53,574 nt of DNA from Minisyncoccota bacterium (GTDB taxonomy: Bacteria; Patescibacteriota; Minisyncoccia; Phycocordibacterales; UBA9973). The notes under the pieces are model-generated. The model was not told where the DNA came from and did no database searches. It saw only the letters and a list, made by a program, of their open reading frames with translations. The position numbers and the translations under genes are program-made. Below are positions 6,561 to 52,753 of the stretch, piece by piece. The stretch's first letter is position 1, and the number at the start of each line of letters is the position of its first letter. Location of the stretch: NCBI GenBank assembly GCA_017991915.1, contig JAGOPQ010000002.1:1-53574 (forward strand), in the 5' to 3' direction.

Positions 6561-6580
6561 GTTTTTTGGTCTAAAACTGA

Positions 6581-6620
6581 GAAAGCCATCCGAAGAGCGG
6601 ATAGCTCCCCAGATGGCTTC
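6581..6620 (-). terminator. Hairpin terminator of GC-island gene 1
   Basis: The minus strand reads GAAGCCATC..(loop containing ATCCG-CTCTT-CGGAT)..GATGGCTTT, then tctcagtttta. The hairpin starts at the stop codon. Confidence 0.5.
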
Positions 6621-7038
6621 AGATTTTATTCGTGGTTCCCGTACTTCGGAACCGATCGATGTCTCCCCGCACTTCCGGGATGAGGGTGGTGACCCCTTCC
6701 GTCAGGGCTGGTAGAGCAAGCCGCACCCTCAATGCAAGCTCCAAGCCTTGAATTCTCGAAGATTTCGTCATGCTGGTAACGCAGACTACGTTGGATTCGA
6801 TGGTGCACCAGACCTGTGTGTTGGAGCGATTTTCCACCCACCACGACAGGTTCTCAAACTCCGCCAGCTTCATGCGTCTGCCGTCCCAATCGATACTGTC
6901 GGGCCCCTTCCAGCCGAGATGCCGACCAGAAGCCTTGATGAGGAAACGAATGTACTTAACAATTTGTCTTTGGATCTCGTCCATCGTGTCCGACATCCCC
7001 AACACTTCGTCCACCATCACAACATAGTCCGGGTCCAC
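6619..7038 (-). CDS. Orphan 139-aa protein on GC-rich island 1 (GTG start, strong SD), family not recognised
   Basis: AGGAGG lies 5 nt upstream of the GTG at 7038. Third codon positions are mostly G/C in this frame (19 of the first 26). Composition differs sharply from the flanks. Confidence 0.6.
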   Translation of the reverse strand: MDPDYVVMVDEVLGMSDTMDEIQRQIVKYIRFLIKASGRHLGWKGPDSIDWDGRRMKLAEFENLSWWVENRSNTQVWCTIESNVVCVTSMTKSSRIQGLELALRVRLALPALTEGVTTLIPEVRGDIDRFRSTGTTNKI

Positions 7039-7056
7039 GGCTCCCTCCTGAGGGAT

Positions 7057-7091
7057 AGCCCACTAGGGCTTGGTTGTGAGCCACTAGGCTC
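7057..7091 (-). promoter_or_regulatory. Two tandem 5-bp GC stems with identical TAGT loops in the 5' leader of island gene 1
   Basis: The mRNA sense reads GAGCC-TAGT-GGCTC (7091-7078) and AGCCC-TAGT-GGGCT (7070-7057). Their centres are about 21 nt apart, between the predicted TSS and the SD. Confidence 0.5.
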
Positions 7092-7109
7092 GTGAGGTAC
7101 CTCGAAAAC

Positions 7110-17592: not shown

Positions 17593-17628
17593 TCTTTCAA
17601 GCGGTTGATGACGCGGATATTCTTTTTT

Positions 17629-17668
17629 CGCACGAACGGAGTCCGGCAACTTTAACCCCGTTCGTATG
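17629..17668 (-). other. Strong hairpin in the 3' UTR of island gene 2
   Basis: The stem is gcaCGAACGG / CCGTTCGtatgc (8 bp plus 2 bp) with an 18-nt loop, starting 12 nt after the stop codon. Confidence 0.4.
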
Positions 17669-17679
17669 CAGTCACTGCG

Positions 17680-17973
17680 CTAGACCATGGGTCGGAGTAG
17701 TGACCAGTGGATCTTGCGGATCTCTCCTTCCCACCCGTGTGGTTCGAGGCCGTCCTCCTTGTTCCACGGTCTGCGGAGTGGTTCGCCGTTGTGCAGGAGG
17801 GTGACAGCAAAATCTCCCCCCGTAAATGCCTCCTTCGAGAGTACAACAAAGTACCCCCTGCCGTAGGTGTCTACGAGATCTTGGTGAATCCCCTTGAGGT
17901 TCCATGGAACAAGCTCAGCGGGGACGAAAGTCACGGGCATCCATTCTTCTGGGTCGAGCTTTCGTTGCGACAT
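17680..17973 (-). CDS. Orphan 98-aa protein on GC-rich island 2, family not recognised
   Basis: The ATG at 17973 is preceded by AGGGAGA, 6 nt upstream. The protein MSQRKLDPEEWMPVTFVPAELVPWNLKG... is Trp-rich and not low-complexity. G/C dominates third codon positions. Confidence 0.55.
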   Translation of the reverse strand: MSQRKLDPEEWMPVTFVPAELVPWNLKGIHQDLVDTYGRGYFVVLSKEAFTGGDFAVTLLHNGEPLRRPWNKEDGLEPHGWEGEIRKIHWSLLRPMV

Positions 17974-18017
17974 CGCGAATCTCCCTGGAGGTGGTGGAAC
18001 TATGTGGCTCTGTTTGT

Positions 18018-47174: not shown

Positions 47175-47256
47175 GCCCGAGTGGCGGAATTGGTATACGC
47201 GCACGACTTAAAATCGTGTCTCGCAAGGGATGTGGGTTCGACCCCCACCTCGGGCA
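47175..47256 (+). tRNA. tRNA-Leu (anticodon TAA), type II
   Basis: The acceptor is GCCCGAG/CTCGGGC, the anticodon stem is CACGA/TCGTG with loop CTTAAAA, and the variable arm is long. Confidence 0.9.
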
Positions 47257-47287
47257 CTTGTTTGTGAAGTAGAAGAATTGTTTGTTT

Positions 47288-47483: not shown

Positions 47484-47565
47484 GGGCAAGTGGCGGAATT
47501 GGTATACGCGTTAGTCTTAGGAACTAATGTCGCAAGACTTGAGGGTTCGAGTCCCTCCTTGCCCA
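47484..47565 (+). tRNA. tRNA-Leu (anticodon TAG), type II
   Basis: The acceptor is GGGCAAG/CTTGCCC, the anticodon stem is TTAGT/ACTAA with loop CTTAGGA, and the variable arm is long. Confidence 0.9.
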
Positions 47566-47579
47566 CATATTTGAGGTAC

Positions 47580-47608
47580 TTGACTTTTGTGTACGAGTAT
47601 GCTATACT
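47580..47608 (+). promoter_or_regulatory. Consensus promoter TTGACT-17-TATACT with TG extension, 8 nt upstream of the ATG
   Basis: The sequence reads TTGACTtttgtgtacgagtaTGcTATACTattagcatATG. Confidence 0.6.
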
Positions 47609-47616
47609 ATTAGCAT

Positions 47617-48372
47617 ATGAGTAAAACAATAACAACAATTAAATACGGCCTAATTTACACCTTAATTTTATTAGCTATTTTGGTCCTAGGCGCTATTACA
47701 TTTATGGCAAGGGAAGCGAATGCTGATGAAACAGCTACTTACCAAGCCTACAATAGCCAGCCTTGGGTTGAGAATGAAGCCCCACTAAAGAACCCTACTC
47801 CGGTAGTTAATTCCCTTAGTCCAAATTCTGCAAACTTGGGATCTGGTTCTAGAAACGTAACTATCACAGGAAGTGGATTCGTAAATGATTCTGTGGCTCG
47901 ATGGAATGGTTCTGATCGTCCAACGACTTTCATAGATAGCTCTCACCTTTTGATTTCTCTACGAGGTACTGACATGACTGGCTCAGCTGGTAAATACATA
48001 ACAGTGTTTAACCCTGAACCAAAAGGAGGATACTCAAATGCATCTTTCTTTACTATTAATGGATACGTAGCTCCAGCAGGAAGCAAGGCTACTACTACAA
48101 AGAGTTCTACTAGTACTTCTGGTGCATCAAGCAAAAGTTCTACTGGTAACAATTCTGGAAGTGTTCTAGGTGCTGATAACTCAAACAATACTTCAACGAA
48201 CGACAGTTTCAACTCTCTGACTTCAAATGCTTTGTTTGGTGCAGGTACTTTCCTACCTTCTGGTATCATCCAATGGTTACTCTTCGCAATATTTATCCTA
48301 CTTGTAGTGATAATTATCAGAAAGATTTTCTTTGCAGATAGATATCATTCTACTCCACTAAAGCACGCTTAA
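47617..48372 (+). CDS. Surface protein: signal/TM, IPT/TIG-like Ig domain, Ser/Thr-rich stalk, C-terminal hydrophobic anchor
   Basis: The IPT-like segment is PVVNSLSPNSANLGSGSRNVTITGSGF....V.WNG......FIDSSHLLISL. An S/T/N-rich linker follows, and the C-terminus is FLPSGIIQWLLFAIFILLVVIIIRK. Confidence 0.6.
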   Translation: MSKTITTIKYGLIYTLILLAILVLGAITFMAREANADETATYQAYNSQPWVENEAPLKNPTPVVNSLSPNSANLGSGSRNVTITGSGFVNDSVARWNGSDRPTTFIDSSHLLISLRGTDMTGSAGKYITVFNPEPKGGYSNASFFTINGYVAPAGSKATTTKSSTSTSGASSKSSTGNNSGSVLGADNSNNTSTNDSFNSLTSNALFGAGTFLPSGIIQWLLFAIFILLVVIIIRKIFFADRYHSTPLKHA

Positions 48373-48403
48373 TACCAAGCAAATCAGCTTGAAATAGAAC
48401 GAC

Positions 48404-48431
48404 AAAAGTCAGCCCGAGAGGGTTGACTTTT
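48404..48431 (+). terminator. Intrinsic terminator after the TIG-domain gene
   Basis: The sequence reads aaaaGTCAGCCCgagaGGGTTGACtttt (12-bp stem, one G.U, GAGA loop). Confidence 0.6.
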
Positions 48432-48451
48432 GCGTTATATTGTGATACAAT
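48423..48451 (+). promoter_or_regulatory. Consensus promoter TTGACT-17-TACAAT with TG extension, driving the GC-rich SPFH cassette
   Basis: The sequence reads TTGACTtttgcgttatattgTGaTACAAT. The -35 box lies inside the 3' arm of the preceding terminator. Confidence 0.6.
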
Positions 48452-48454
48452 ATA
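48436..48454. promoter_or_regulatory. Perfect 8-3-8 palindrome overlapping the -10 box (operator candidate)
   Basis: The sequence reads TATATTGT-gat-ACAATATA. Confidence 0.4.
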
Positions 48455-48488
48455 TAAGTACTTTGGTCTTTGAAAATTGGTTGTAAAT

Positions 48489-48559
48489 GAGCGATTTGTT
48501 CGCCGAGTAGCCCTACCCTGCTTAGGAATCCCTAGAGCTTTTGGGCGAACAAATCGTTC
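48489..48559 (+). promoter_or_regulatory. 16-bp inverted repeat closing a 39-nt loop in the ~170-nt leader of the SPFH cassette
   Basis: The arm gagcgatttgttcgcc (48489-48504) pairs with ggcgaacaaatcgttc (48544-48559), with one G.U. A second hairpin, GCGCC-ccc-GGCGC (48600-48612), abuts the SD. Confidence 0.45.
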
Positions 48560-48627
48560 ACACAATTCACTACACGCGCGCCACAAGGCGACGCACTATG
48601 CGCCCCCGGCGCGGAGGAGATACACAA

Positions 48628-49503
48628 ATGCCTACACAAGACAGCACCTGGGACTTGGTCCTGGGGGGTGTCATTACCCTCATCCTGCTCATCTTCAGCA
48701 TCACTGCATTCCCGTCTGGAACGGGATTTCTCAATGAAGTATTCTATCTCTTGTTGATGTGCATCCCCTGGGGATGGCACTTCACAGGGTGGAAAACCAC
48801 CCAGGTGGGTTTCCGCTCTCAAGCTCTTTTGTTTGGAGCAAGGGTGAACTACTTCATGGGAGAAGGCCTTCACTACACGCCATGGCCAGCAGGACGCAAG
48901 GAAGTGGATTGCAGGGAGCAGGTGTTAAAGCTGGATCCAGTCAAAGCTTTCACAAAGGGCCGAGACGGTACTCCAGATGAAGTTGGACCAGAAGTGGAAG
49001 TGCAAGCAACCGTCACCAGAAGAGTGACGAACCTGCATGAATACTTCGACGTCAACGAGAAGGATATCAAGCAGTGGCTTGATGACACTCGCGACGAGGT
49101 CGTGCGCCACAAGGTTTCAGAGAAAACCCTGAGCCAAGCCCTCACTATGGGCTCTACTCTCGCAGTGGAGCTTCATTCAGCTCTGCAGGGGAAGAGTCAT
49201 TGGGGAATCGAAATCACTGGGGCAGCAATACCAGGTATCGCTCCGACTGACGAGAAGATCATGAAGGACCTCGCACTCAAGGAGGGCGAGGAACTCCAGC
49301 GCACTGGACAGCAGATCGAGGTAAAAAACTTTACCGAGATCATGAAGCAACTCATGGACGCTGGGTGCTCTCGTGAACAAGCCTTTGAACAGGCCCAACT
49401 CACGATCAAGAAGGCCACCAAGACGATTGACTCGAAGAGTCTGGTGGTTGATGCCACAACCGCATCCATCTTCGCAGGAATCCTCGGAGGGAAGAAGCCA
49501 TGA
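48628..49503 (+). CDS. SPFH/Band-7 (stomatin/prohibitin/HflK-like) membrane protein on GC-rich island 3
   Basis: GGAGGAG lies 8 nt upstream of the ATG. The protein has two N-terminal TM helices and SPFH-like blocks (FRSQALLFGARV...EGLHYTPWP...VDCREQVLKL....VEVQATVTRRV, WGIEITGAAIPGIAPTDE). Confidence 0.72.
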   Translation: MPTQDSTWDLVLGGVITLILLIFSITAFPSGTGFLNEVFYLLLMCIPWGWHFTGWKTTQVGFRSQALLFGARVNYFMGEGLHYTPWPAGRKEVDCREQVLKLDPVKAFTKGRDGTPDEVGPEVEVQATVTRRVTNLHEYFDVNEKDIKQWLDDTRDEVVRHKVSEKTLSQALTMGSTLAVELHSALQGKSHWGIEITGAAIPGIAPTDEKIMKDLALKEGEELQRTGQQIEVKNFTEIMKQLMDAGCSREQAFEQAQLTIKKATKTIDSKSLVVDATTASIFAGILGGKKP

Positions 49504-49937
49504 ATAAGGCTAGAAACCCTGCGTGGATTGCGGGGTCAATCGTTGGCATGTTGCTGGTCGTGATGGTTCTGGTCTTCGTCTTCACTCGTGGAAGTTCGAA
49601 TTCAACACGAGACGACAAGCAAGACACCGGCGGTCAGTCGGCGGGAACTGCAGCGGACACCGTGTATATGGCGCCGCGATTTCGGACCATGCGGGTGTTT
49701 GACAGCATTCCGCCCGAAGGCATCCGTCTTTATCTCCGACAGGGGTGGCAAGACTTCCCTCTGGGTGGAGCTATCACGATCCAGATGATCAACGAATCGG
49801 GAAGCCCTGTTGGTCCAATTCTGCATGATGAACCAGGTGTCCAACATGACTTTGGATTCCAACCCGACGGACTTTACATCATCCACGCCGACCCACAAGG
49901 GTCACGTAGGGGGGTAAGACTTTACAACCAATGGTAG
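49500..49937 (+). CDS. 145-aa bitopic protein translationally coupled to the SPFH gene, family not recognised
   Basis: The ATGA start overlaps the SPFH stop, and GGAGGG lies 8 nt upstream. The protein has one TM helix (WIAGSIVGMLLVVMVLVFVF), then a domain of about 100 aa with beta-strand-like patterns. Confidence 0.6.
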   Translation: MNKARNPAWIAGSIVGMLLVVMVLVFVFTRGSSNSTRDDKQDTGGQSAGTAADTVYMAPRFRTMRVFDSIPPEGIRLYLRQGWQDFPLGGAITIQMINESGSPVGPILHDEPGVQHDFGFQPDGLYIIHADPQGSRRGVRLYNQW

Positions 49938-49963
49938 TTAAACGATCTGCGCAATAATGCGCA

Positions 49964-49997
49964 AAGGGGGCGGACTCAACATCGAGTCTGCCCCCTT
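49964..49997 (+). terminator. Strong hairpin terminator closing GC island 3
   Basis: The sequence reads AAGGGGGCGGACTCaacatcGAGTCTGCCCCCTTtcacgtttt (14 bp, one G.U). A small GCGCA-ataa-TGCGC hairpin precedes it. Confidence 0.7.
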
Positions 49998-50035
49998 TCA
50001 CGTTTTAATTCCTTTTTACAAACCTTTATCTATCT

Positions 50036-50371
50036 TTATCTTGGAGGGTAAGTGGGATTATAACCATCCAACTCCACTTTTCCAGTTTCCGGCGTTATTC
50101 CATCAACCTTTAGAGTATTTAGAATCAAATTCATGATTGCGAACACTCCCATCATAATAGTAAGACCAATAATTCCCCAAACCATGTGCATCTTGCCAGT
50201 AGTTTTTGCTTCTTCATTGTCCCCATTCGAAATGAATTGGAAAACTCCATACAAGAAGTAAACCAACGCTAGGGCGAAAAGCAAAGTGATGATTGGATTT
50301 ACAATGAGTTTATTTATCTTCATTATAAACGAATCAAGATTTCCACTCGCAGCATACGCAATGTTTATCAT
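50036..50371 (-). CDS. Small two-TM TrbC/VirB2-like pilin-family protein (paralog 5, no signal peptide)
   Basis: The module is PIITLLFALALVYFLYGVFQFISNGDNEEAKTTGKMHMVWGIIGLTIMMGVFAIMNLI. An in-frame stop lies two codons upstream of the ATG. Confidence 0.6.
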   Translation of the reverse strand: MINIAYAASGNLDSFIMKINKLIVNPIITLLFALALVYFLYGVFQFISNGDNEEAKTTGKMHMVWGIIGLTIMMGVFAIMNLILNTLKVDGITPETGKVELDGYNPTYPPR

Positions 50372-50400
50372 AACTTACTATTGATACTTACTGCTTTAGA

Positions 50401-50793
50401 TTAATAAGGAACTGTTGGGAAATTGATGTTTGTGGTGTTGTTTAGTCCGAAAGTGTTAGTAACTATTCTAACAAGACCCCACATACCTACGATAACCACC
50501 AAGCCGATGATTCCGTAAATCATTCGGTTTCTTCCAGTAGTCTTCGCCTCTTCATCACTAGCGATAACGAATTGAACTACTCCAAACACGAAGTAAAGTA
50601 CTCCGAGGGCGATTAGAAATGGAAGGATTGCTCCCAAGATTTCATTGAACTTACAAATCAAACTCTGGATAGTTGTGATAGAACCACCAGTACATTGTGT
50701 AGGATTTTGACCAGTAACTTGGGCAAACGCCACCAATGGGGCATATCCTAGAACAAGACCTGACAATACGATTAATTTATTTTTCATAATCAT
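50401..50793 (-). CDS. Small two-TM TrbC/VirB2-like pilin-family protein (paralog 4)
   Basis: The signal peptide ends AFAQV. A Cys pair follows, then ILPFLIALGVLYFVFGVVQFVIASDEEAKTTGRNRMIYGIIGLVVIVGMWGLVRIV. Confidence 0.62.
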   Translation of the reverse strand: MIMKNKLIVLSGLVLGYAPLVAFAQVTGQNPTQCTGGSITTIQSLICKFNEILGAILPFLIALGVLYFVFGVVQFVIASDEEAKTTGRNRMIYGIIGLVVIVGMWGLVRIVTNTFGLNNTTNINFPTVPY

Positions 50794-50825
50794 TTTTTAC
50801 TAATAATAACTTATTGCGACCCCCA

Positions 50826-50853
50826 CCCGACTGAGTGACTTCAGTCATTCGGG
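50826..50853 (-). other. GC-rich hairpin in the predicted 83-nt leader of paralog 4
   Basis: The minus strand reads CCCGAatgaCTGAAgtcaCTCAGTCGGG, followed by tgggggtcgc. Confidence 0.3.
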
Positions 50854-50882
50854 CAGGTTTTAATAATTAATAATGTCTATAT

Positions 50883-50891
50883 ATTGTAGCA
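50883..50891 (-). promoter_or_regulatory. Extended -10 box (TGcTACAAT) inside the pilin-like array
   Basis: The minus strand reads gtgTGcTACAATatatag, about 25 nt downstream of the paralog 3 stop. Confidence 0.45.
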
Positions 50892-50915
50892 CACAACTTG
50901 CAAGTCGTCTGTGAA

Positions 50916-51752
50916 TTACTGACTTTTTAGCTGTGGAATGGCATATTCAATACCAAAGGTGGTTCCGACAATTTTAACCAATCCCCACACAGAAACCATC
51001 ACAACTAAGGCGATAATTCCCCACAACATAAACTGTCTACCCTTTTCTTTCTTTGCCTCTTCGTCACTATTTATTACGTATTGAACAACACCCCAGATAA
51101 ACATAGCCAAGGCTAGCGCAAATATAAGTGGAATGACAGATTTACTGATAATACAAATCACGTAATTAATCAAACTTTGCAAATTGGAATTCTTAACCAA
51201 ACTACACAATCCCCCGCTTGAGGCTTGTACGATACCACTACTCAAATTACTGATGTCTGGAGCTTGATTGGCAATACCAAAAGTATTTACAACAATAGCA
51301 ACGAGACCCCACATACCGAAAATCACGACTAGTCCAATAAGACCAAAAATAATTCGGTTTCTGCCTTCCTTTTTGGCTTCATCTCCCCCACCTATCATGT
51401 ACTGCACCACACCCCAAACAAAGTAGACCACCCCAAGTGCGACAAGCAGTGGAATCAAGGCATTCAAGATGGAACCGAGCTTACACAACAAATCTCCAAA
51501 GTCGTTTACGTTTGTAGCACAGACTCTACCAGAAGAACCTTGGTTGCTGGAAAAAATAGTTGATCCACTACCACCTCCAAAGGTTCCGTTGCTGTAGCAA
51601 CCAGTCGAAGTTTCCCACGTATCTGGTTCATCTGGATCACAGGGTAAGCCGAGTGCGTTTTGAGCGTTGGAAAAATTTGGTAAAATAGTAAAAACTAAAA
51701 CTAAAACAAGTAAGAATGCTTGAGCTATTTTAAATTTATTGAAGTTTTTCAT
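50916..51752 (-). CDS. Tandem-duplicated (double-module) TrbC/VirB2-like protein (paralog 3)
   Basis: Two complete modules lie in one ORF. The first is LIPLLVALGVVYFVWGVVQYMIGGGDEAKKEGRNRIIFGLIGLVVIFGMWGLVAIV. The second is VIPLIFALALAMFIWGVVQYVINSDEEAKKEKGRQFMLWGIIALVVMVSVWGLVKIV. Confidence 0.62.
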   Translation of the reverse strand: MKNFNKFKIAQAFLLVLVLVFTILPNFSNAQNALGLPCDPDEPDTWETSTGCYSNGTFGGGSGSTIFSSNQGSSGRVCATNVNDFGDLLCKLGSILNALIPLLVALGVVYFVWGVVQYMIGGGDEAKKEGRNRIIFGLIGLVVIFGMWGLVAIVVNTFGIANQAPDISNLSSGIVQASSGGLCSLVKNSNLQSLINYVICIISKSVIPLIFALALAMFIWGVVQYVINSDEEAKKEKGRQFMLWGIIALVVMVSVWGLVKIVGTTFGIEYAIPQLKSQ

Positions 51753-51759
51753 ATTTTTA

Positions 51760-52131
51760 TTAAGAAATTCCCAAGACAGTCTCAGAAATAAGTATAGCTA
51801 TAGCCCAAGCCCCGAGCAATATAGCTGCGCCAATAATAGTGTACAACAGTGATTTTTTTGCAGTTTCTAATTTTTCCGAATTTCCTTGGGCAGCCACAAA
51901 CAAGAATCCACTGTAAATCAAAGCTAGAGCAATGATGGGAATACCTATCTTTATTACTCCAATCAAAATGACTTGAATAAATTCTGGAATAGTTTTATAT
52001 GGAATTGGGGGACAAATTGTGCCCGGTTCACAGGTAATACCATCAGCATAAATTGTAGTTGGTAAACTAAAAACAACAAGTAAGCTACTTATAATTCTAT
52101 AGCTATGTTTCTGGAATAATTTCATAAACAT
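51760..52131 (-). CDS. Small two-TM TrbC/VirB2-like protein (paralog 2)
   Basis: The signal peptide ends IYADG and is followed by CEPGTIC. The module is IPIIALALIYSGFLFVAAQGNSEKLETAKKSLLYTIIGAAILLGAWAIAIL. The start could be 52143, 52131 or 52125. Confidence 0.58.
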   Translation of the reverse strand: MFMKLFQKHSYRIISSLLVVFSLPTTIYADGITCEPGTICPPIPYKTIPEFIQVILIGVIKIGIPIIALALIYSGFLFVAAQGNSEKLETAKKSLLYTIIGAAILLGAWAIAILISETVLGIS

Positions 52132-52144
52132 ATTGTATAACATA

Positions 52145-52753
52145 TTAAAATCCAATCCAACTTCCATTATAACCCACAATCAACAATATTGTTCTAATAA
52201 TTAGCCACGATGCTACAGCAATAACTAAACCCTTCACAACATCAACAAAAATACCCTTAGCTTTGCTCATGGACTCAGTACTACCCCCAGATGTAACCAT
52301 CAAAACGCCAGCGTAAGCAAACATTATAGCAGCAATTGGTAGAGCCATCTTGAACAGTAAAAACTGGATAACTGTATTTATAAGATTCATAAAAGCATTA
52401 AAATCACAGTCACCAGGATTTGCTGATGTTTTACAGGGGACCAAACCCTTACCATCATAGGGTGTTTTTGTTGTAGCTGAAGAATTTGTATTCGTATTAG
52501 TATTTGGATTTGGTGATGGATTTCCTGTATTTATCGGAACAGCATTGTTTGGTGCTGGAGAATCTGCTACCCAAGTACCCCCATCAGCATAACATTGATC
52601 TTCTGGATACCCTGGAGCAGTAGCGCCTTGGGAAGCTAGTGAAGGTAAGGTGCATGTACCCAATGGAACTTGAGCGGAAGAGATATTGGAAAAACCAAAA
52701 ATCAAAGCAAGCAACAAACTCGGGATTGATAATTTGGTAAAAATTTTTTTCAT
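52145..52753 (-). CDS. TrbC/VirB2-like protein with an extended Cys/Pro/Asn-rich ectodomain (paralog 1)
   Basis: The signal peptide ends SSAQV. The ectodomain has four or more Cys and an NPSPNPNTNTNTN tract. The module is LPIAAIMFAYAGVLMVTSGGSTESMSKAKGIFVDVVKGLVIAVASWLII. Confidence 0.58.
   Translation of the reverse strand: MKKIFTKLSIPSLLLALIFGFSNISSAQVPLGTCTLPSLASQGATAPGYPEDQCYADGGTWVADSPAPNNAVPINTGNPSPNPNTNTNTNSSATTKTPYDGKGLVPCKTSANPGDCDFNAFMNLINTVIQFLLFKMALPIAAIMFAYAGVLMVTSGGSTESMSKAKGIFVDVVKGLVIAVASWLIIRTILLIVGYNGSWIGF

Follow-up and report, generated by a model that had tools for sequence, protein, structure and literature searches.

SPFH cages have been studied intensively, and to our knowledge NfeD is the only recurrent operon partner of bacterial SPFH proteins to have been described. 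The SPFH-NfeD operons, such as E. coli QmcA-YbbJ, B. subtilis YuaF-FloT and Pyrococcus PH1510/PH1511, combine an SPFH gene with a gene for a small membrane-anchored protein; in E. coli, ybbJ follows qmcA. These operons are tight, and the small partner has a C-terminal all-β domain (PMC2636767). A short NfeD typically spans the membrane with three segments, and YuaF was assigned to NfeD at 21% identity, on structural grounds (PMC2636767). The prokaryotic subfamilies SPFH3/HflKC, SPFH4 and SPFH6-12 are without an identifiable NfeD partner (Hinderhofer et al. 2009).

The window analysed here, a stretch of 53,574 nucleotides, contains a two-gene cassette whose parts follow in the order terminator hairpin (holding the -35 box), strong extended -10 promoter, structured 5' UTR of about 170 nt, SPFH gene, coupled gene for a bitopic partner, and putative bidirectional terminator. 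It shares with the SPFH-NfeD operons the combination of an SPFH gene and a small membrane-anchored protein, but its partner has neither an NfeD sequence signal nor a predicted OB-type fold and has one transmembrane segment rather than three; in addition, the pair is hypervariable, is fixed beside a pilin array, has a raised GC3 and is preceded by a dedicated structured leader. Compared with SPFH3/HflKC, SPFH4 and SPFH6-12, the cassette has a different partner, which is recurrent and translationally coupled. We take it, with a probability of about 0.6, to be one copy of an expression cassette that is fixed in position and specific to a lineage of ultra-small (CPR) bacteria of the Nomurabacteria/Paceibacterota type, and in which an SPFH protein and its client or adaptor are encoded beside pilins, behind a leader that acts post-transcriptionally. 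The cassette varies the known SPFH operon in a new way and carries a leader motif that is itself new. The sequence features listed in a preliminary description of this DNA are all present, at the positions given there or a few bases away.

The SPFH protein and its coupled partner

The first gene (48628–49503, + strand) encodes a protein of 291 residues with an N-terminal hydrophobic anchor, located at residues 10–28 by hydropathy. It is identified as an SPFH/Band-7 membrane scaffold protein by Pfam, in which residues 60–225 match Band_7 (PF01145) with 31.3 bits against a cut-off of 23.6; the public copy of this ORF and the homologue P0002 likewise carry PF01145. The AlphaFold2 model is of moderate confidence (pLDDT 63 overall, from an alignment of 2 sequences) and places strands at 98–133 and 194–206 and helices at 209–244 and 249–270, giving an α/β SPFH core followed by a long C-terminal helix, the part that makes up the coiled-coil wall of SPFH cages. 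Foldseek matched the core to HflK/C, stomatin, prohibitin, QmcA and flotillin with E-values from 5e-8 to 1e-5 and a probability of 1.00. The score above cut-off and the predicted fold bear out the original assignment of the first ORF to SPFH. Its closest relative in a word-indexed search of 5.8 billion proteins is merely 40% identical, so that ORF1 is not assignable to a described SPFH subfamily, and a scan of the JGI metagenomes with the SPFH alignment found no relative.

The public gene call begins 30 nt further upstream (ATG at 48598, giving 301 residues). We favour the ATG at 48628 because of the position of the Shine-Dalgarno sequence GGAGGAG (48613–48619, + strand), which lies 8 nt ahead of it. 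The order GGCGC-(A)AGGAG-ATG is also found in related leaders, and the upstream ATG at the equivalent place in L023 lies in another reading frame, as read from the leader sequence.

The second gene (49500–49937, + strand) overlaps the first in the sequence ATGA (49500–49503), as the preliminary description had it. The junction of the two genes falls between -4 and +3 nt in 28 of 32 loci, and the only close homologue is followed by a gene that likewise overlaps by 4 nt. The partner protein, of 145 residues, consists of a transmembrane helix (10–28), a disordered linker and a seven-stranded β domain (60–145) ending in YNQW; AlphaFold2 models residues 60–145 with a pLDDT above 90. Positive-inside charge counts are ambiguous as to topology. 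An exhaustive search found the partner to belong to an unnamed family of 90 homologue clusters, and many partners have a lipobox-like Cys. The partner alone retrieved nothing in the word-indexed protein search and no family in Pfam, PHROG, PADLOC or NCBIfam, and searches of both proteins against PHROGs, PADLOC and NCBIfam gave nothing usable. Some giant proteins among the partner matches consist of WD40 or SdrD_B/CarboxypepD_reg repeats and were dismissed as summed weak repeat matches, and a FliL match to the partner profile among PDB sequences (E 0.028) was ignored, as it covers only the transmembrane segment and the linker.

In layout the partner corresponds to NfeD, being a small membrane protein in an operon with an SPFH gene. 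The preliminary description had recognised no NfeD motif in it, and this holds both by sequence and by predicted fold. NfeD is absent from the Pfam matches of the partner at E-values up to 1, and a profile of 45 members of its family found no NfeD chain among the PDB sequences at E-values up to 10. The predicted model has seven strands, not the five-stranded OB-fold β-barrel of NfeD, and finds no significant match in the PDB: the best Foldseek matches are cupin- or jelly-roll-like and non-significant (E 0.017 or higher), and the top 50 do not include NfeD. By sequence and by predicted fold, the partner belongs to a separate, unnamed β-domain family and not to NfeD. The preliminary description also remarked on its downstream position. 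That NfeD partners lie upstream is not a rule, and since ybbJ is located 3' of qmcA in E. coli, a downstream partner is not in itself unusual.

At other loci, further first genes at the slot score as Band_7, while six of ten first genes from related loci gave no Pfam match; in L009 and L020 the first gene both lacks a Pfam match and falls outside all SPFH clusters. The first genes form three sequence clusters and the partners two, and these are not co-distributed. A comparison of the two partner clusters with hhalign gave a probability of 13%, too low to establish that they share an origin.

The right end of the cassette is a GC-rich hairpin flanked by A and T runs (49963–49998), with 15-nt arms (49963–49977 and 49984–49998) that are 93% complementary. 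From its sequence, it probably terminates transcription in both directions and so serves the convergent pilin gene as well. Of the 14-bp terminator proposed earlier the hairpin stands; the consensus scan made no terminator call here, the T-run being interrupted.

Promoter and leader RNA

The left end of the cassette is the hairpin terminator of the upstream TIG gene (48403–48432, + strand; arms 48403–48415 and 48420–48432), whose 3' arm, GGGTTGACTTTTG, carries the -35 box of the cassette promoter. A consensus scan identified this promoter as sigma-70-type with an extended -10 (TTGACT-17-TGaTACAAT, 48423–48451, + strand), comprising TTGACT (48423–48428), a spacer of 17 nt, TG (48443–48444) and TACAAT (48446–48451), in agreement with the earlier proposal of such a promoter with its -35 box inside the terminator stem. 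The pattern TTGACT-17(18)-TAnnnT is kept in all 32 orthologous loci, and the AAAGTCAGCCC-loop-GGGTTGACTTTT hairpin recurs in most of them; empty sites have a plain, unrelated terminator in its place. Transcription is predicted to start at about 48458–48459. From 48452 up to the ATG, the promoter scan found nothing else on the + strand that resembles a promoter, and so the predicted leader of about 170 nt, already remarked on as long, stands.

A perfect 8-3-8 palindrome, TATATTGT-gat-ACAATATA, lies over the -10 box (48436–48454; arms 48436–48443 and 48447–48454), and when the 40-nt promoter segment was shuffled 500 times, just 2 of the shuffles attained its arm length. The suggestion that it is a repressor operator is weakened by the comparison of loci: among 32 orthologous promoters, only 8 have a palindrome at this centre whose arms reach 5 nt or more, and the half-sites are not consistently spaced.

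The leader (48458–48640) folds with -65.3 kcal/mol (z = -4.7), and none of 200 shuffles was equally stable. At about +10 it carries a box, CTTTGAAAA (48468–48476, + strand; consensus yTTGAmAA), which is found in about 24 of 32 loci at a fixed offset of 45–47 nt from the start of the -35 box. We considered this box as the -35 element of a second promoter and dismissed it on inspection of the leader sequences, which have no -10-like hexamer at the usual spacing downstream.

The box is followed by a long hairpin (48488–48560, + strand) with 28-nt arms (48488–48515 and 48533–48560) of 82% complementarity, a near-perfect core of 17 bp and an apical region with conserved GAGUAGCC. The inverted repeat of the preliminary description is therefore real, and longer than the 16 bp given there. 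In an RNAalifold alignment of 12 loci the long hairpin has 19 pairs, and compensatory changes are seen in 15. Its paired cells amount to 85%, compared with 68% in shuffles (0 of 500 reach 85%) and 30–52% in slid controls, and G-U pairs are frequent, which indicates an RNA of the + strand. A covariance model of this hairpin (R1), run over 1.34 Mb, matched at such leaders only.

Two GC hairpins complete the leader on the + strand. GC hairpin 1 (GCGCGCC-acaa-GGCGaCGC, 48576–48594) is the counterpart of a conserved CCCGCGCC-ugcg-GGCGC in related leaders. GC hairpin 2 (GCGCC-ccc-GGCGC, 48600–48612), identified from the fold and the alignment of leaders, abuts the Shine-Dalgarno sequence; it had been described as extending to 48619, and the hairpin is indeed there, but 48613–48619 is the Shine-Dalgarno sequence itself. 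In 12 leaders the arms of hairpin 2 are nearly invariant and the loop is 3–7 nt long. The GC hairpins are without covariation, and their predicted folding fits the data. Across 1.33 Mb of related DNA, most hairpins of the GCGCC/GGCGC type lie within these leaders. Metagenome matches to the corresponding DNA pattern are mostly chance matches in contigs above 0.6 GC; among low-GC matches, 10 of 10 are such leaders. AT-rich orthologues are entirely without GC hairpins.

Rfam 15 found nothing for the window leader at E-values up to 10, and for the leaders of L016 and L057 Rfam gave only generic sub-threshold hairpin or terminator-like matches. The leader structure is conserved and its long hairpin covaries, as the preliminary description needed it to. 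On the evidence of sequence comparison, the leader is a conserved RNA element of the + strand with no match in Rfam.

Structured 5' UTRs include mRNA-stabilising 5' hairpins, RNase III processing stems and RNA thermometers. By analogy, the leader would resemble such elements in its length, stability and conservation and in having both a near-perfect 17–20 bp duplex and short GC hairpins at the Shine-Dalgarno sequence. It differs from them in having no Rfam match, in a Shine-Dalgarno sequence that is not predicted to be masked, and in GC arms that are conserved in sequence without covariation. In thermodynamic predictions for 26 leaders, the mean unpaired probability of the Shine-Dalgarno sequence was 0.42 with the native sequence and 0.39 with the upstream part shuffled (Wilcoxon p = 0.47). 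In the window leader it was 0.39, compared with 0.24 in shuffles, that is, more open, and the predicted default fold does not sequester the Shine-Dalgarno sequence. Of the translational or temperature switch that had been proposed for the adjacent hairpin, the conserved hairpin is upheld and the masking is not.

The genomic slot

The cassette lies between the gene for a TIG surface protein (47617–48372), which separates it from the tRNAs, and an array of VirB2-like pilin genes; the surrounding ORFs scanned with Pfam are pilin-like or TIG-domain proteins. Such arrays form the same neighbourhood in Patescibacteria and are highly variable in CPR (bioRxiv 10.1101/2025.01.22.634366), and the one opposite the cassette consists of T4SS_pilin (PF18895) paralogues. 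The terms 'SPFH' and 'Band' have 0 occurrences in that paper, in which the cassette is unmentioned. Judged from gene order, the link between cassette and pilin array appears to be positional only.

Of 40 syntenic genomes (Nomurabacteria/Paceibacterota), about 35 have a comparable coupled pair at this same slot, and in five the site is empty. The contexts retrieved with partner homologues have the same arrangement, a Band_7 gene followed by the partner homologue, flanked by IF-2/RbfA and T4SS_pilin genes, so both surveys confirm that the pairing of SPFH and partner recurs. Across these loci the similarity of IF-2 correlates with that of p257 (rho 0.51), but not with that of gene 1 (rho -0.02) or gene 2 (rho 0.05), and the two module genes do not correlate with each other (rho 0.00); saturation may contribute to the values for the module genes, most module pairs being near the detection limit. 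The slot evolves unusually fast, and divergence or exchange of the module genes proceeds independently of the genes on either side.

The cassette also differs in composition. GC climbs from 0.34–0.44 to 0.52–0.57 across 48500–49999, and GC3 is 0.61 in the SPFH gene and 0.57 in the partner gene, compared with 0.26–0.43 for 32 other ORFs of the window. This anomaly is real and is a lineage-wide property of the slot: GC3 exceeds that of the flanks for gene 1 in 28 of 32 loci and for gene 2 in 29. Besides the cassette, the window contains two further GC-rich ORFan islets.

Proposed function and alternative readings

By analogy with relatives of solved structure, the SPFH protein would form a membrane-anchored ring or cage. 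Translational coupling would provide the partner in fixed proportion to it, and the partner may be a membrane-embedded client or adaptor of SPFH, a functional analogue and not a homologue of NfeD. The pair would work in the cell envelope beside the pilin array, where diversifying pressure from hosts or phages could account for its hypervariability. If the SPFH domain is cytoplasmic (with a QmcA-like N-terminus) and the β domain of the partner lies outside, the soluble domains cannot touch. The leader is proposed to act after transcription, through self-contained hairpins that leave the Shine-Dalgarno sequence unmasked; these are more likely to govern how the mRNA is processed or how stable it is, for instance with an RNase III-type long duplex and, after it, GC hairpins that protect the 5' end, or to be bound by a sequence-specific factor.

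Several other readings were weighed against this one. The preliminary description pointed to foreign DNA at a tRNA landing zone, that is, a recent island beside the four-tRNA cluster. The GC rise, a GC3 in both genes that no other long ORF of the window reaches, the uncoupling of module similarity from the flanking genes and the empty site in some related genomes would suit an island, but synteny largely refutes this and makes it very unlikely: the slot is filled in most of the syntenic genomes and in every context retrieved via partner homologues, the atypical composition recurs at the slot across the lineage, and promoter and leader are common to that lineage. Moreover, the TIG gene intervenes between tRNAs and cassette, no att-like direct repeats were found to bracket the cassette, and no relative was found in IMG/VR or the GenBank phages. 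It is unlikely, if somewhat less so, that the pair is an anti-phage or conflict module, such as a membrane-acting abortive infection system, at a variable hotspot of the kind occupied by defence genes. Conflict loci typically show what is seen here, namely presence in some genomes and absence from others, extreme divergence, mixed combinations of gene-1 and gene-2 families and an unusual composition; yet PADLOC-DB 2.0 gave no match (0 families for both proteins at E-values up to 1), neither a nuclease nor an NTPase nor any other effector domain is present, and the TIG protein and VirB2-like pilins encoded next to the cassette belong to the envelope and not to defence. The near-universal occupancy of the slot would also suit a housekeeping role in the envelope. 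We also doubt that this is an ordinary SPFH-NfeD operon whose NfeD has diverged past recognition. YuaF was accepted as an NfeD at 21% identity only, on structure (PMC2636767), and the partner does have the NfeD arrangement of N-terminal membrane segment, linker, C-terminal all-β domain and SPFH operon; against this stand the single transmembrane segment in place of three, the failure of the Pfam and PDB profile searches to find NfeD even at permissive E-values, and a confidently modelled seven-stranded domain whose non-significant best matches are of another fold.

Two further readings concern the leader. A riboswitch or RNA thermometer that hides the Shine-Dalgarno sequence until signalled would be in keeping with a conserved and very stable leader, with hairpin 2 abutting the Shine-Dalgarno sequence, with GCGCC/GGCGC/GCGCC/GGCGC segments that can pair in alternative registers, and with some MFE folds in which the preceding CCC or the +10 box pairs with the Shine-Dalgarno sequence. 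Ensemble accessibility is not below that of shuffles, however, and is higher in the window; AT-rich orthologues do without any GC hairpins, there is no match to an Rfam family, and no conserved multi-helix pocket was found, which makes such a switch improbable. Least plausible is that the inverted repeats act as DNA, as operators or recombination sites, even though the GCGCC-N-GGCGC units are sequence-invariant palindromes, a perfect palindrome covers the -10 box in the window and the GC-rich block starts at the long hairpin. Pairing in the long hairpin is kept through many G-U pairs, workable only in + strand RNA, loops of 3–7 nt in the GC hairpins are not tolerable for a dimeric DNA-binding site, and the -10 palindrome is confined to 8 of 32 loci.

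On our preferred reading, a lineage-specific SPFH cassette with a coupled partner, a second and, by prediction, structurally different partner family in dozens of genomes would offer a new handle on the contents of SPFH cages. CPR bacteria are mostly uncultivated episymbionts, and the cassette, which marks a hypervariable and compositionally odd slot by VirB2-like pilins, is a candidate determinant of host or phage interaction. The leader is a compact, well-conserved RNA motif that covaries clearly, is absent from Rfam and lies upstream of envelope genes, and it is a candidate new cis-acting element that can be tested directly.

More speculatively, and with odds that we put well short of even, GC-rich 'islet' envelope genes in AT-rich CPR genomes might be an unrecognised class that is swapped between lineages at fixed slots and expressed via a shared, CPR-specific 5'-UTR RNA module, defining a post-transcriptional regulon for the host- or phage-facing surface, with the present cassette as type example. 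The proposed members would be SPFH scaffolds with interchangeable β-domain partners, together with surface lipoproteins, and the module would combine the +10 box with the covarying long hairpin and the invariant hairpins of GCGCC/GGCGC type. Leaders of the same types are also found upstream of genes for a BACON lipoprotein (L145) and a Gly/Asn-rich lipoprotein (L077).

The two proteins of the module

The analyses show an SPFH scaffold gene tightly coupled to the gene for a β-domain membrane protein other than NfeD. The pair fills a fixed slot beside a pilin array and is preceded by a conserved promoter and RNA leader. The first protein, ORF1, matches Pfam Band_7 with 31.3 bits against a cut-off of 23.6. 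Its AlphaFold2 model is of moderate quality overall (pLDDT 63) and good across residues 100–260, and its fold matches are HflK/C, archaeal and human stomatin, prohibitin, QmcA and flotillin (E about 5e-8 to 1e-5). On the Band_7 score and these matches of the predicted fold, ORF1 is an SPFH protein. Among 5.8 billion proteins, a word-indexed search returned a single relative (P0002, 40% identity), whose 1.3-kb contig has a further gene downstream, overlapping by 4 nt. The public copy of the window protein (P0001, 301 aa) has its start called at ATG 48598, within the leader hairpin region; we favour ATG 48628 (291 aa), on the basis of the Shine-Dalgarno (SD) sequence and comparison with the related locus L023.

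The partner, ORF2 (145 aa), has no match in Pfam, PHROGs, PADLOC or NCBIfam. An exhaustive HMMER search gave homologues in 90 clusters, mostly of 130–220 aa. These proteins begin with a hydrophobic segment, and after a variable linker comes a conserved domain of ~85 aa with YNRW at its end. The AlphaFold2 model, built on a 14-sequence alignment, has seven β-strands, with residues 60–145 at pLDDT above 90. Foldseek comparison with the PDB gave no match below E = 0.017 and no NfeD entry in the top 50; the best matches, all non-significant, were cupin or jelly-roll-like. Since NfeD was found neither by Foldseek nor by the partner-family profile searched against PDB sequences, the partner is, as judged from model and profile, not an ordinary NfeD. 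Both assignments agree with the preliminary description, which had called ORF1 an SPFH/Band-7 protein and seen no NfeD signal in its partner. Many partner homologues (for example P0011, P0014, P0017, P0019 and P0050 in the family alignment A2) carry a lipobox-like Cys 2–4 residues past the hydrophobic segment, which is absent from the window's own ORF2. A Cys so placed suggests that these homologues may be processed as lipoproteins, with the domain facing outward.

Among known systems, the SPFH-NfeD operon (PMC2636767) comes closest, and the cassette shares its operon logic. In the published description, an NfeD of about 140–150 aa has three hydrophobic regions and a β-barrel of OB type (PMC2636767); unlike in that operon, the partner here lacks the defining NfeD features tested. 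Full-text literature searches on SPFH or stomatin in Patescibacteria or the candidate phyla radiation (CPR) listed no paper that, by title and abstract, deals with a CPR SPFH module. We rate the partner family and the leader motif as new, and the SPFH scaffold theme as already known.

The genomic slot

By the best match of its IF-2 (75% identity), the window belongs to CPR bacteria of the Nomurabacteria/Paceibacterota type. The comparison set comprised 80 related loci together with the contexts of partner homologues. All contexts retrieved via partner homologues have a common gene order: DUF4446, IF-2, RbfA, (tRNAs), a TIG-like membrane protein, the Band_7 gene and the partner, followed by a convergent T4SS_pilin array, SBP_bac_1, a methyltransferase and GyrA. 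A two-gene module (280–460 aa plus 130–290 aa) occupies the slot in about 35 of some 40 loci that span it, with a gene junction mostly of −4 to +3 nt. Five loci (L021, L037, L049, L054 and L074) are empty sites, in which the TIG gene leads directly to the pilin gene over a gap of 74–111 bp. Because the plain terminator found there is unrelated to the TTGACT-bearing hairpin of the window, the latter is part of the cassette. In L021, the TIG-to-pilin region has GC-rich repeats instead.

The preliminary description had regarded the nearby tRNA cluster as a landing zone for foreign DNA. This reading is made unlikely by the TIG gene, which separates the window cassette from the tRNA genes, by the lack of direct repeats bracketing the cassette, and by the occupation of the same slot in so many loci. 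No relatives were found in IMG/VR or GenBank phages.

In the window, the upstream neighbour is the TIG-domain gene (Pfam TIG, 47617–48372). Its promoter (47580–47619) is TTGACT-17-TATACT with TG, 71% identical to the cassette promoter over 31 nt; the −10 box ends 8 nt before ATG 47617, so the TIG mRNA is probably leaderless, unlike the adjoining 170-nt cassette leader. The two tRNA-Leu genes at 47175–47257 and 47484–47566, with anticodons TAA and TAG, share 73% identity across 85 nt and have the appearance of an ancient tandem duplication. On the other side, a minus-strand run of five ORFs (50036–52753) converges on the cassette. Its first ORF (50036–50371) matches Pfam T4SS_pilin and the other four are pilin-like by tblastn cross-matches, ORF 50916–51752 being an internal duplication. 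VirB2-like pilin arrays in CPR have been described as variable, with this cassette unmentioned (bioRxiv 10.1101/2025.01.22.634366).

Promoter and RNA leader

Reading of 47800–50400, together with mechanical scans, located every sequence element noted earlier. The terminal hairpin of the TIG gene (48403–48415/48420–48432) holds within its 3′ arm the −35 box TTGACT (48423–48428), which is followed by a 17-nt spacer with TG (48443–48444) and the −10 box TACAAT (48446–48451), all on the plus strand. An 8-3-8 palindrome occupies 48436–48454. The predicted plus-strand leader (about 48459–48627) contains the box CTTTGAAAA (the +10 box, 48468–48476), a long inverted repeat (48488–48515/48533–48560), two GC hairpins (48576–48594 and GCGCC-ccc-GGCGC, 48600–48612) and the SD GGAGGAG (48613–48619) ahead of the ORF1 ATG (48628). 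The two genes overlap in ATGA (49500–49503), and a hairpin with 15-nt arms follows ORF2 (49963–49998). The predicted fold of the leader has −65.3 kcal/mol (z = −4.7), and a consensus scan found no further plus-strand promoter-like site between the −10 box and the ATG.

All 32 aligned loci have TTGACT-17(18)-TAnnnT with upstream TG, and about 24 of them have the +10 box yTTGAmAA, 45–47 nt from the start of the −35 box. For the long hairpin, 12 leaders were aligned with MAFFT, without fitting to structure, before RNAalifold was applied. The hairpin has 19 pairs, 15 of them with compensatory double changes, and 85% of its cells are paired, compared with 68% in shuffles (0 of 500 as high) and 30–52% when the partner columns were slid as a control. 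The covariation sought for the leader is present in this hairpin. G-U pairs are frequent, so that the structure would be functional solely as plus-strand RNA. The leader has no Rfam match; a covariance model of the +10 box and long hairpin, run over 1.34 Mb, matched such leaders exclusively, including five loci outside the training set and a second copy in L077 preceding a lipoprotein gene. This copy (L077 12350–13023, E 1.7e-4) has the promoter TTGACA-17-TATACT, and the Gly/Asn-rich lipoprotein behind it (~171 aa, lipobox VSSGC) is encoded upstream of the TIG gene.

The GC hairpins are confined to GC-richer leaders. The GCGCC/GGCGC arms, which occur twice, hardly vary, and covariation consequently speaks neither way; the loops range from 3 to 7 nt, which fits a hairpin better than a dimeric DNA site. 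The double-hairpin pattern gave 120 matches in metagenomes, of which about 110 were chance ones in high-GC contigs, while the low-GC matches were true leaders with promoter and SD-ATG in 10 of 10 cases. Seven of these ten can be recognised by their flanks as belonging to this slot; two are not long enough to judge, and one lies elsewhere (L145 185–1697, on a 559-kb contig shared with L081). The latter, a second double-GC-hairpin leader, reads TTGACA-17-TACAAT, then CCCGCGCC-tgcg-GGCGC ... GCGCC-tat-GGCGC-GAGGAG-ATG, and precedes a GC-rich (0.58) gene for a 458-aa lipoprotein with BACON and TSP1-like domains. The leader is thus not exclusive to the SPFH module.

Two regulatory readings in the preliminary description fared less well. 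At the −10 centre, where a repressor operator had been proposed, 8 of 32 promoters have a palindrome whose arms reach 5 nt or more, with an ATTGT-ACAAT spacing of 3 or 5 nt; on these sequences it may be particular to a subclade and is not generally conserved in the cassette. The SD-adjacent hairpin had been suggested as a translational or temperature switch. Ensemble SD accessibility averages 0.42 in 26 native leaders against 0.39 with shuffled upstream sequence (p = 0.47), and in the window it is above the shuffled value (0.39 against 0.24), which argues against such a switch. In the predicted folds the leader hairpins seem to close on themselves, with the SD left open, and a processing, stability or factor-binding element would fit better than a thermometer.

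Variability and base composition

Gene 1 sequences form three phmmer clusters, two with Band_7-positive members; the partners form two, which are not co-distributed with the gene 1 clusters and are only possibly related to each other (hhalign probability 13%). Pairwise similarity of IF-2 correlates with that of the flanking gene p257 (rho 0.51) but not with that of gene 1 (−0.02) or gene 2 (0.05), and genes 1 and 2 are likewise uncorrelated with each other (0.00). Third-codon-position GC (GC3) in the window is 0.61 for ORF1 and 0.57 for ORF2, and 0.26–0.43 in all 32 other ORFs that reach 200 aa. Across loci it exceeds the flank mean in 28 of 32 for gene 1 and 29 of 32 for gene 2 (mean excess +0.11 and +0.14). 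Codon bias from expression is an unlikely cause, because GC3 is not high in the window's ribosomal and RNA-polymerase-region genes. The simplest reading would be repeated exchange or recombination at the slot, possibly with GC-biased conversion.

By analogy with relatives of solved structure, we propose that the SPFH protein assembles into a ring or cage and that the partner, made together with it, would be its client or adaptor. The module would act in the envelope, under diversifying pressure or exchange, with the leader tuning mRNA fate.

The window has two other GC-rich islets. One (6580–7100, GC 0.54–0.55 against a window mean of 0.41) holds a minus-strand ORFan of 139 aa (6619–7038, no Pfam family), preceded on that strand by a promoter-like TTGATT-17-CATAAT, the GC-rich hairpins gagcctagtggctc and agccctagtgggct, and an SD. 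The other (17600–18010, GC up to 0.56) holds a minus-strand ORFan of 97 aa (ATG 17973 to 17683), also of no Pfam family.
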